A stretch of 64,000 nt of DNA from positions 1,550,001 to 1,614,000 of the forward strand of contig OZ076409.1 in the NCBI GenBank assembly GCA_964187785.1, read 5' to 3'. Positions within the stretch are counted from its first letter, which is position 1, and every line of letters starts with the position of its first letter. The stretch comes from Amphiscolops sp. MND2022 (taxonomy: Eukaryota). The position numbers and the translations under genes are program-made. The notes beneath the pieces were generated by a model. It did no database searches, had not been told where the DNA came from, and worked only from the letters and a program-made list of their open reading frames with translations. This document shows, one piece after another, positions 50,930-51,510 of the stretch.

Positions 50930-51510
50930 TACACGTCGAAATACCGTGTCTTCCCGATTAAGAAAAGTGTTGTTTGAAACAGACAAAAGTGAATAGTAGC
51001 GAGGAGTTATTTATAGACGGCAGAGTTTGATACTAAGATCGTTACCGTCTCTTCTTGCCTGAGAAAGAGAGAGTTAAAAAAGTTAAGTAAAGGCGAGGCT
51101 ACACGTCCAAAACCCGTGTCTTCCTACCAAAGAAAAAGTGATCTAAGTGGCCAGTTTAGATCAATGAAAAGAATAAAGGTAGGGAGTTATTTATACACGG
51201 CAAAGTTTGATGCAAACCGTCGTTTGATCTTTACCGTGTCCTTGTCAGACTTTGTGACAAAAGTTGTAATATACGTATATACACCGTATCTTCGTTGAGC
51301 TATGCAACGGAGTTATTTATACACGGCAGAGATTGGTACAGATATCGTTACCGTGTCTTCTTGCAAGGATAAAATTGGATACGCACGTCCAAAACCCGTG
51401 CCTTCCTGCTGATGAAAACTGATCTAATTTAGATCAAAAAGAAAAGGAGCAGGGAGTTATTTATACACGGCAGAGTTTGATACTGAGAATGTTACCGTGT
51501 CTTGCACCTG
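50930..51510. repeat. Four structured repeats with covarying stems
   Basis: Conserved core ggagttatttata(c/g)acggca flanked by hairpins with compensatory changes. Confidence 0.8.

Follow-up and report, generated by a model that had tools for sequence, protein, structure and literature searches.

The tandem array at positions 50931-51501 of the window (the whole 64,000-nt stretch of Amphiscolops sp. MND2022 DNA analysed here, from contig OZ076409.1) is likely to be a covariation-supported structured RNA element whose helices are kept through compensatory changes. Rather than a self-contained RNA gene, it is an internal module of a Ty3/gypsy-like LTR retroelement of ~20.7 kb on the minus strand. 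Within this element the array is likely to form the hairpin-structured part of an ATG-free leader that precedes env in the element's sense transcript. An initial annotation of the window had proposed a new structured RNA at this position. Covariation upholds the structural part of that proposal, but the stand-alone RNA has to be given up: the array is a module fixed inside an LTR retroelement of high copy number.

Membership of the retroelement was examined in the 1.07-Gb genome. A search with the 581-nt array as query gave 212 first-look candidates, and the 40 that were scored all matched over the full length at 90-98% identity; the copy number of the element is at least 40. An exact search with a 23-nt unit core, a pattern which catches near-identical units only and leaves divergent arrays outside its reach, gave 577 matches genome-wide as compared with 0 for the reversed control. 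Among the matches listed for this core the units formed arrays of up to five with constant spacing, and no array of more than five units. Gene order around the array was the same in 5/5 other copies examined over 24-25 kb. The parts of the element are collected in Table 1. No family match was found for the 148-aa small ORF whose remnant adjoins the array, and the small ORFs between pol and the array carry an NFNCPW motif. A BEL/Pao element with Peptidase_A17, DUF1759 and DUF5641 domains is present elsewhere in the window.

The env gene downstream of the array is broken in the window copy, where the match to PF24664 changes frame between about residues 87 and 196. Other copies have it intact as an ORF of 711 aa with a signal peptide and a C-terminal membrane anchor (PF24664, E = 7e-30 for an intact copy). 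Because this intact env maps to the minus-strand interval given in Table 1, the array can be placed ~285 nt upstream of env in the sense of the element. The initial annotation's placement of the array 'upstream of env' is thus correct for the minus-strand gene starting at 50646, but not for the plus-strand ORF of 579 aa at ~53590-55329. The latter was rejected as env, since it has no Pfam, PDB-sequence or Atlas match and its translation is without a signal peptide or membrane anchor. It is carried by a copy-specific 1.7-kb insertion (53586-55293), which is cleanly missing from a sister copy of 98% identity and unaligned in the other four copies examined. A plant Tat/Ogre-type element with an antisense ORF was also discarded because the BEL/Pao domains mark an animal genome and the ORF is a copy-specific insertion. 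Two further candidates were set aside: a polypurine tract, since it is the antisense strand that carries the purine-rich tracts, and a poly(A) signal or AU-rich element as the identity of the linker described below, for which no supporting feature was found.

Table 1. Positions in the window of the array units and of the other parts of the host retroelement, in the order of the element's sense
Feature	Position	Strand	Basis or remarks
5' LTR	63192..64000, continuing ~1462 nt past the window	-	direct repeat
gag-pol region	56352..62703	-	Retrotrans_gag, RVT_1, RT_RNaseH, Integrase_H2C2; several frames in this copy
Remnant of 148-aa small ORF	51607..52036	-	adjoins the array upstream in element sense
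ATG-free run	50647..51669	- (element sense)	spans the entire array, from the env start codon to the final part of the small ORF upstream
Acceptor-like motif (candidate)	51508..51527	-	pyrimidine tract then CAG/G; read from sequence, at the array's sense 5' edge
Repeat unit 4, type e	51383..51501	-	first unit in element sense; sequence, folding, alignment
Repeat unit 3, type d	51271..51357	-	sequence, folding, alignment
Repeat unit 2, type c	51101..51240	-	sequence, folding, alignment
Repeat unit 1	50931..51051	-	a/b hybrid of the family's unit types
env	48510..50646	-	Monjiviricetes-type fusion glycoprotein, PF24664
MATH/TRAF-domain ORF	47036..48373	-	between env and the 3' LTR
3' LTR	44739..46977	-	direct repeat; 86-bp tandem repeats at 45639-46441
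Partial extra LTR duplicate	43981-44739	-	adjoins the 3' LTR

Each of the four tandem units comprises three hairpins, A, B and C, and an invariant linker that reads TTATTTAT on the plus strand and TATAAATA on the element's sense strand. On the plus strand, hairpin A has a stem of 5 bp and a loop of 9 nt, hairpin C has a stem of 6 bp and a loop of 24-33 nt, and hairpin B has an outer stem CTTC..../....GGAG with 4-5 inner base pairs that vary by unit. The arms of hairpin B are 7 to 51 nt apart yet still complementary. In unit 2, stem A is acacg/cgtgt, stem B is cttcctacc/ggtagggag with an inner hairpin gatctaa/ttagatc, hairpin C (acacgg/ccgtgt) encloses an inner hairpin caaac/gtttg, and a hairpin ttgtca/tgacaa comes after C. 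Unit 3 has stem A atacg/cgtat, a short hairpin B (cttcgttg/caacggag) with a loop of 7 nt, the linker, and stem C acacgg/ccgtgt, while unit 4 has stem A gcacg/cgtgc, stem B cttcctgct/agcagggag with an inner hairpin gatcta/tagatc, and stem C acacgg/ccgtgt. The hairpin B stem of unit 1 is imperfect. The four units lie where the initial annotation placed them, and all of the motifs quoted there were recovered: the hairpin A arms (acacg/cgtgt twice, atacg/cgtat and gcacg/cgtgc, with 9-nt loops), the three pairs of hairpin B arms given above, the ttatttat linker, and hairpin C as agacgg/ccgtct or acacgg/ccgtgt. Its further statement that loops and lengths diverge needs narrowing: divergence is confined to the B loops and the spacers, and conservation extends to the A loop, the linker and one half of the C loop.

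The layout typical of the family is five units, a to e on the plus strand, with a spacing of about 146, 183, 126 and 145 nt. Most copies of the family have five units; the window copy and its 98% sister have four because both contain the a/b hybrid unit. The unit coordinates come from a model built on the same four units, and matches to this model serve to fix coordinates only. Tandem Repeats Finder did not report the array at a score of 30 or above, as the units are just 60-82% alike.

Covariation was examined in an alignment of nine unit sequences, namely the five unit types of one five-unit copy and the four units of the window. Standard pairs occupied 98.2% of the 170 cells of this alignment. 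Six of the 20 stem pairs were altered on both sides and none (0/20) on a single side, a signal that has only ~5 independent lineages behind it. When the 3' partner was slid by 1-3 columns as a control, 30-53% of cells were paired, with 0-1 double changes, and none of 500 shuffles matched the observed paired percentage or covariation score. The inner B stem of unit d (GTTG/CAAC) is evident in the sequence itself but went uncounted, because the alignment misplaces the 5' arm of this unit.

RNAalifold, run without a preset structure, recovered all three helices on the minus (element-sense) strand, with -17.95 kcal/mol and 19 pairs of which 6 were compensated. The corresponding plus-strand fold contained A and C, with -10.5 kcal/mol and 14 pairs of which 4 were compensated. 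These folds agree with the stem covariation claimed in the initial annotation. Folding stability was modestly above that of dinucleotide shuffles and, per unit, similar on both strands (z of -0.9 to -2.7 on the plus strand and -1.0 to -2.3 on the minus strand, 200 shuffles each). For the whole array, z was -2.1 on the plus strand and -3.5 on the minus strand, values based on only 20 shuffles.

Selection was assessed in 40 aligned copies of the family, with variants classed as private when present in fewer than three copies and as shared when present in three or more. Private variants mostly reflect decay after insertion, and shared variants are inherited through transposing lineages. Rates of private variants were alike in stems (1.19%), other parts of the array (1.42%) and flanks (1.51%). 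Columns with shared variants numbered 5/266 in stems, 69/458 in the non-stem array and 79/366 in the flanks (Fisher p = 6e-10 for stems versus non-stem array). The arms are constrained and not merely symmetrical, since shared variants are ~8-fold depleted there and private ones are not. The five affected stem columns all fall within inner hairpins, leaving A, outer B and C untouched, and correspond to four pairs: a fully compensated one (A-T in 26 copies and G-C in 14, without intermediates), a mostly compensated one (A-T in 37, G-C in 2, G-T in 1), one that is G.T on the plus strand in 9 copies, and a broken one (A.A in 14 copies). In the same 40 copies no shared variant was found in the A loop, the linker or the linker-proximal half of the C loop. 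This pattern indicates purifying selection on the arms, the A loop and the linker, in keeping with the selection on structure that had been proposed for the array. The depletion of shared variants in stems relative to flanks argues against a neutral tandem repeat or satellite. The units are also not being homogenised, because unit-specific stems such as atacg/cgtat are retained in 39-40/40 copies.

Complementary arms may also arise at the DNA level, either as inverted repeats that template switching creates and keeps symmetrical in the course of reverse transcription or replication, or as double-stranded binding sites of the enhancer or insulator type, in which case pairing would be a by-product without RNA function. 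Several inner palindromes have a loop of 0-1 nt and are continuous through the centre, a property commoner in DNA-level palindromes than in RNA hairpins. The inner B hairpins and the spacers are perfectly palindromic in this way, one loop hexamer is palindromic in both of its variants, and the two strands fold about equally well. Repeat arrays in the non-coding regions of other retroelements are insulators or enhancers, which also counts for this explanation. Template switching has been reported to make and maintain hairpins (PMC8794818, PMC5453318; consulted in part). A purely DNA-level origin nevertheless appears decidedly unlikely, as it does not account for arms that are depleted of shared variants and not of private ones. 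Neutral copying from arm to arm predicts compensated shared variants at roughly the frequency of shared variants elsewhere, but there are only two such pairs. Dimeric protein sites predict neither matched changes in both half-sites nor a spacing of 7-51 nt between arms, and neither version explains the strand-specific avoidance of ATG to which we now turn.

On the sense strand, env is preceded by ~1.0-1.2 kb free of ATG, where ~10 would be expected. The first upstream ATG is 1020-1314 nt from env in 9/12 copies with the env start in the locus, and these nine have none within 900 nt; the other 3/12 copies have private sense ATGs at 222-577 nt. Over 1170 nt upstream of env there are 0 ATG as compared with 9.8-10.5 expected from a first-order Markov model, with P of about 3e-5 to 6e-5, a value that is optimistic because the run is partly made of repeats, namely the units of the array. 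On the antisense strand, 12-17 ATG were observed over the same length as compared with about 17 expected. CTG, TTG and GTG were not depleted in this 1170-nt leader. The env leader is the longest sense ATG-free run of one 25-kb copy (C5) and the second longest of another (C11), after the LTR/gag leader, which is ATG-depleted in both orientations and whose 86-bp repeats make its sequence simple. In the remaining non-coding parts of these two copies ATG was not depleted. The run starts ~200 nt ahead of the first unit, inside the end of the 148-aa ORF.

Such a run looks like the signature of a leader that would be scanned by ribosomes toward env, and argues against an array that is purely intronic or purely DNA-level. 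The initial annotation had listed an IRES among possible functions; this is disfavoured because the entire array sits within the 1.0-1.2 kb ATG-free run on the env-coding strand, the presumed signature of scanning. The functional strand is probably the element's sense strand because ATG avoidance is strand-specific, an assignment made from sequence. Wobble pairs leave the strand unfixed. On the sense strand, hairpin C contains a conserved U.G pair and gains an A-U, giving 8 bp, whereas a conserved U.G in outer B on the plus strand becomes C.A on the sense strand, and a variant common to 9 copies is G.U on the plus strand only. Across the 40 copies there were 61 G.U as compared with 25 A.C cells; two shared variants, one in a mis-registered arm, account for 23/61 of the G.U cells, and the rest (~38 versus 24) are not decisive.

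The plus strand, antisense to the element, might itself encode the structured RNA, or the array might be a self-cleaving or nuclease-resistant RNA. The outer B wobble and the single shared G.U variant would favour a plus-strand RNA, as would the linker, which on that strand reads as what we take to be an AU-rich nonamer. Yet the consensus fold is poorer on the plus strand (-10.5 versus -17.95 kcal/mol), ATG avoidance is on the opposite strand, and the ORF 2 kb downstream is the copy-specific insertion and not a gene served by the array. A scan of window positions 49500-53500 on both strands with cmscan and Rfam 15 gave no match at E<=1 to any family, including hammerhead, twister, pistol, HDV-like, xrRNA and IRES families. 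This agrees with the initial annotation's failure to assign the array to a known ribozyme class, and gives no sign of the self-cleaving or nuclease-blocking activity that it had suggested. We regard a functional plus-strand, self-cleaving or nuclease-resistant RNA as highly improbable.

Other env-containing families of the same genome offer a comparison. A genome search with PF24664 gave 5699 first-look candidates, and the 68 that were scored fell into several env length classes. In 18 copies with an ORF of 702 aa and 2 copies with an ORF of 712 aa, the last ATG upstream of env is at -437 to -521. These two families have their own tandem hairpin modules in the leader, whose number varies among copies, and a short hairpin motif near the ATG in common with the array's family; they have no TATAAATA. 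In families with env directly after pol, ATGs occur close upstream. Because the 702- and 712-aa families lack TATAAATA, what recurs is a hairpin-rich, repeat-built, ATG-free env leader and not the TATA motif. The hairpin arrays of these sister families are analogous to the array in the window and are not homologous with it.

This comparison bears on whether the array is an internal promoter, the alternative that the initial annotation had named as a repeated TATA-like promoter on the minus strand. Each unit would then work as a sense-strand module, either a core promoter with a TATA box or an enhancer, and the array would drive a subgenomic transcript of env (and the MATH ORF) independently of the 5' LTR. 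The linker TATAAATA, which is invariant and oriented in sense, suits a promoter no less well than an RNA linker: it occurs once per unit on the env strand, about 370-950 nt before the env ATG, and has no lineage-shared variant in 40 copies. Every start site implied by these motifs has an ATG-free path to env, and C-A dinucleotides can be read in the sequence 26-31 nt after the TATA in most units. There is also a precedent in Oikopleura Tor3b/4b, where an internal env promoter, Penv, in the pol-env spacer was demonstrated by 5'-RACE and reporters, according to the consulted part of PMC4402516. Like the Tor elements, the element described here is of Ty3/gypsy type with env, and its array is a cis-element in the post-pol spacer that is a candidate for control of env apart from the LTR. 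It differs in that covariation points to base pairing and not to a plain promoter, and the consulted Tor text is without tandem hairpin modules or TATA repeats. A promoter leaves unexplained both the compensatory changes between arms 7-51 nt apart and the conservation of both arms. A start ~30 nt past the TATA would land in hairpin B, no initiator motif common to all units was found, and the ATG-free run begins ~200 nt upstream of the first TATA. In addition, the related families have similar ATG-free leaders and hairpin modules without TATAAATA. We consider an internal promoter less likely than not, yet it is the strongest competitor of an RNA-level role, and the two roles could coexist.

A role at the level of RNA has, in our judgement, close to an even chance of being correct. 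Under this proposal the units present conserved single-stranded sequence on covarying stems and act as a multivalent protein platform in the env leader. The array would be contained in an RNA from which env is translated by scanning, and could enter that RNA either by splicing onto the acceptor-like motif at its sense 5' edge, which resembles a 3' splice site and is a candidate for one, or through an internal start. In element sense, the single-stranded sequence displayed by each unit would consist of the UAUAAAUAA linker, the loop of hairpin A (9 nt) and one half of the loop of hairpin C, with the stems that carry these sequences free to covary. Binding of a protein, encoded by the host or by the element, to the 4-5 units would be multivalent, and this protein may control export, stability or translation of the env-containing RNA.

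A more specific form of this proposal is suggested by retroviral analogy. The Rev response element, the constitutive transport element and the direct repeats of RSV are multi-stem-loop response or transport elements of retroviruses, and elements of the Rev response and constitutive transport type are located in intron-containing retroelement RNA and bound by a viral or host protein. The array may be an independently evolved RNA response element of this kind, with its modules bound by proteins of the small ORFs with the NFNCPW motif in a switch between gag-pol and env expression, although we consider this rather unlikely. The resemblance is of a structured cis RNA near env that is repeated or multivalent and putatively binds protein, and the extra small ORFs of the element could encode an RNA-binding factor. 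The array differs from all three in having no sequence or Rfam similarity to them, and in lying upstream of env in an ATG-free leader, not within or after env. CERV-dependent export of genomic RNA has been described for Cer1 (consulted part of PMC10309623).

Published work provides partial counterparts to the host element. Metazoan Ty3/gypsy elements carrying env of the chuvirus or gB-like glycoprotein type have already been published, as seen in the consulted parts of PMC13524379 and PMC7642597, and the element described here likewise combines a gypsy-type pol with a captured glycoprotein of a negative-strand RNA virus (PF24664). In the main text of PMC13524379, 'splice', 'internal promoter' and 'tandem repeat' are absent (0 occurrences of each term), and nothing on env leaders was found in the parts consulted. 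Among the publications listed for tandem repeats or stem-loops of errantivirus env, none described such an array.

The array and the leader around it have separate counterparts. In rice tungro bacilliform virus a long AUG-free stretch lets ribosomes scan to a start codon far downstream, and here too the coding strand is devoid of AUG for ~1 kb ahead of an ORF. The AUG-poor stretch of the virus is coding and is passed by leaky scanning, whereas the leader of the array is non-coding and hairpin-rich. Non-coding arrays of LTR retroelements include the gypsy Su(Hw) insulator, the 5' UTR repeats of ZAM and Idefix, and the 3' repeats of plant Ogre/Tat elements. The array resembles these as a set of family-specific tandem repeats whose copy number shifts by unequal exchange (here four versus five units). 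Those repeats have been described as DNA-level protein sites or neutral hypervariable regions, whereas the array has covarying stems and constrained arms. The array is thus a family-specific, putatively cis-acting retroelement repeat with an unusually clear base-pairing constraint.

To our knowledge, the mode of env expression in LTR elements outside vertebrates is known in very few cases. Drosophila errantiviruses express env by splicing, and Oikopleura Tor elements from an internal promoter. Here we have described a candidate control region that is backed by three independent signatures: compensatory stems, purifying selection on the arms, and strand-specific avoidance of start codons over ~1 kb. 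The region calls for annotation as part of a transposable element and not as a host non-coding RNA gene. If the array acts as a promoter, it would represent a second, independently evolved internal env promoter. If it acts as RNA, it would represent a new modular class of cis-acting RNA in retroelements and would provide a handle on the regulation of captured viral glycoprotein genes.

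The env leaders of related elements in this genome, those with 702- or 712-aa env ORFs, were found to lack ATG over 437-521 nt (in the env-upstream parts of loci L087, L088, L096 and L062-L086), and are built of tandem modules whose hairpins are unlike those of the window's array. Some of these modules differ from one another by matched arm changes and their number varies from copy to copy. A short hairpin motif close to the env ATG is common to these sister families and to the window's own family. We also observed that the LTR/gag leader of another copy of the element (C11) has no ATG on the sense strand for 1918 nt, with antisense ATG being depleted in the same region.

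Features of the window and of related loci. L012, L024-L026 and L094 are loci elsewhere in the same genome.
Feature	Position	Strand	Remarks
1920-aa open frame of BEL/Pao element	window 19056-24818	-	Peptidase_A17, DUF1759, DUF5641, integrase
86-bp tandem repeats, 7 copies	window 45639-46441		inside LTR
MATH/TRAF-domain ORF	window 47036-48373; L012:4119-5144	-	PF21355, E = 2e-22
Three small ORFs (106, 112 and 148 aa)	L094:350-1569 (+); window 51607-52461 (-)		between pol and array
125-bp repeat, 2.1 copies	window 52838-53100		between small-ORF region and insertion
1.7-kb insertion	window 53586-55293	+	nearly all one ORF
579-aa ORF	window 53590-55329	+	fills almost the whole 1.7-kb insertion
98% identical element copy with flanks	G000:C1:1652929-1677928 (L024-L026)	inverted	matches window 40538-64000 and beyond

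The three small ORFs are candidate accessory proteins. Those of 106 and 112 aa are paralogous, sharing the motif NFNCP(W/F)KITTPSG, a likeness of which also occurs in small ORFs carried by the families with a 702- or 712-aa env; a Pfam search with the 148-aa ORF gave no match. The MATH/TRAF-domain ORF is flanked by env and the 3' LTR and runs in the orientation of gag-pol; the other element copies have corresponding ORFs at this position. The element seems here to carry a signalling domain of host type.

Comparison of copies demonstrated that the 1.7-kb insertion is missing from the 98% identical sister copy and from four other copies of the element. GC content is raised at this site (0.476 in bin 54001-56000 vs ~0.38 in the surroundings). 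Searches of Pfam, PDB sequences and the Atlas with its 579-aa ORF returned no match, and within the genome there are only distant paralogues (8 other matches, 28-44% identity). Possible identities of the insertion are an endogenous viral element and a retrogene. The sister copy itself, which is inverted, ~67 kb from the window's element and near-identical through its flanks, is a segmental inverted duplication and not a separate insertion.

A first look across the genome yielded 5699 candidate PF24664 env-like sequences. Among the 68 of these that were scored, many have open frames, which fall into several length classes (~712, 718, 731, 821 and 938-952 aa). The genome of this Amphiscolops species is densely stocked with env-carrying retroelements.
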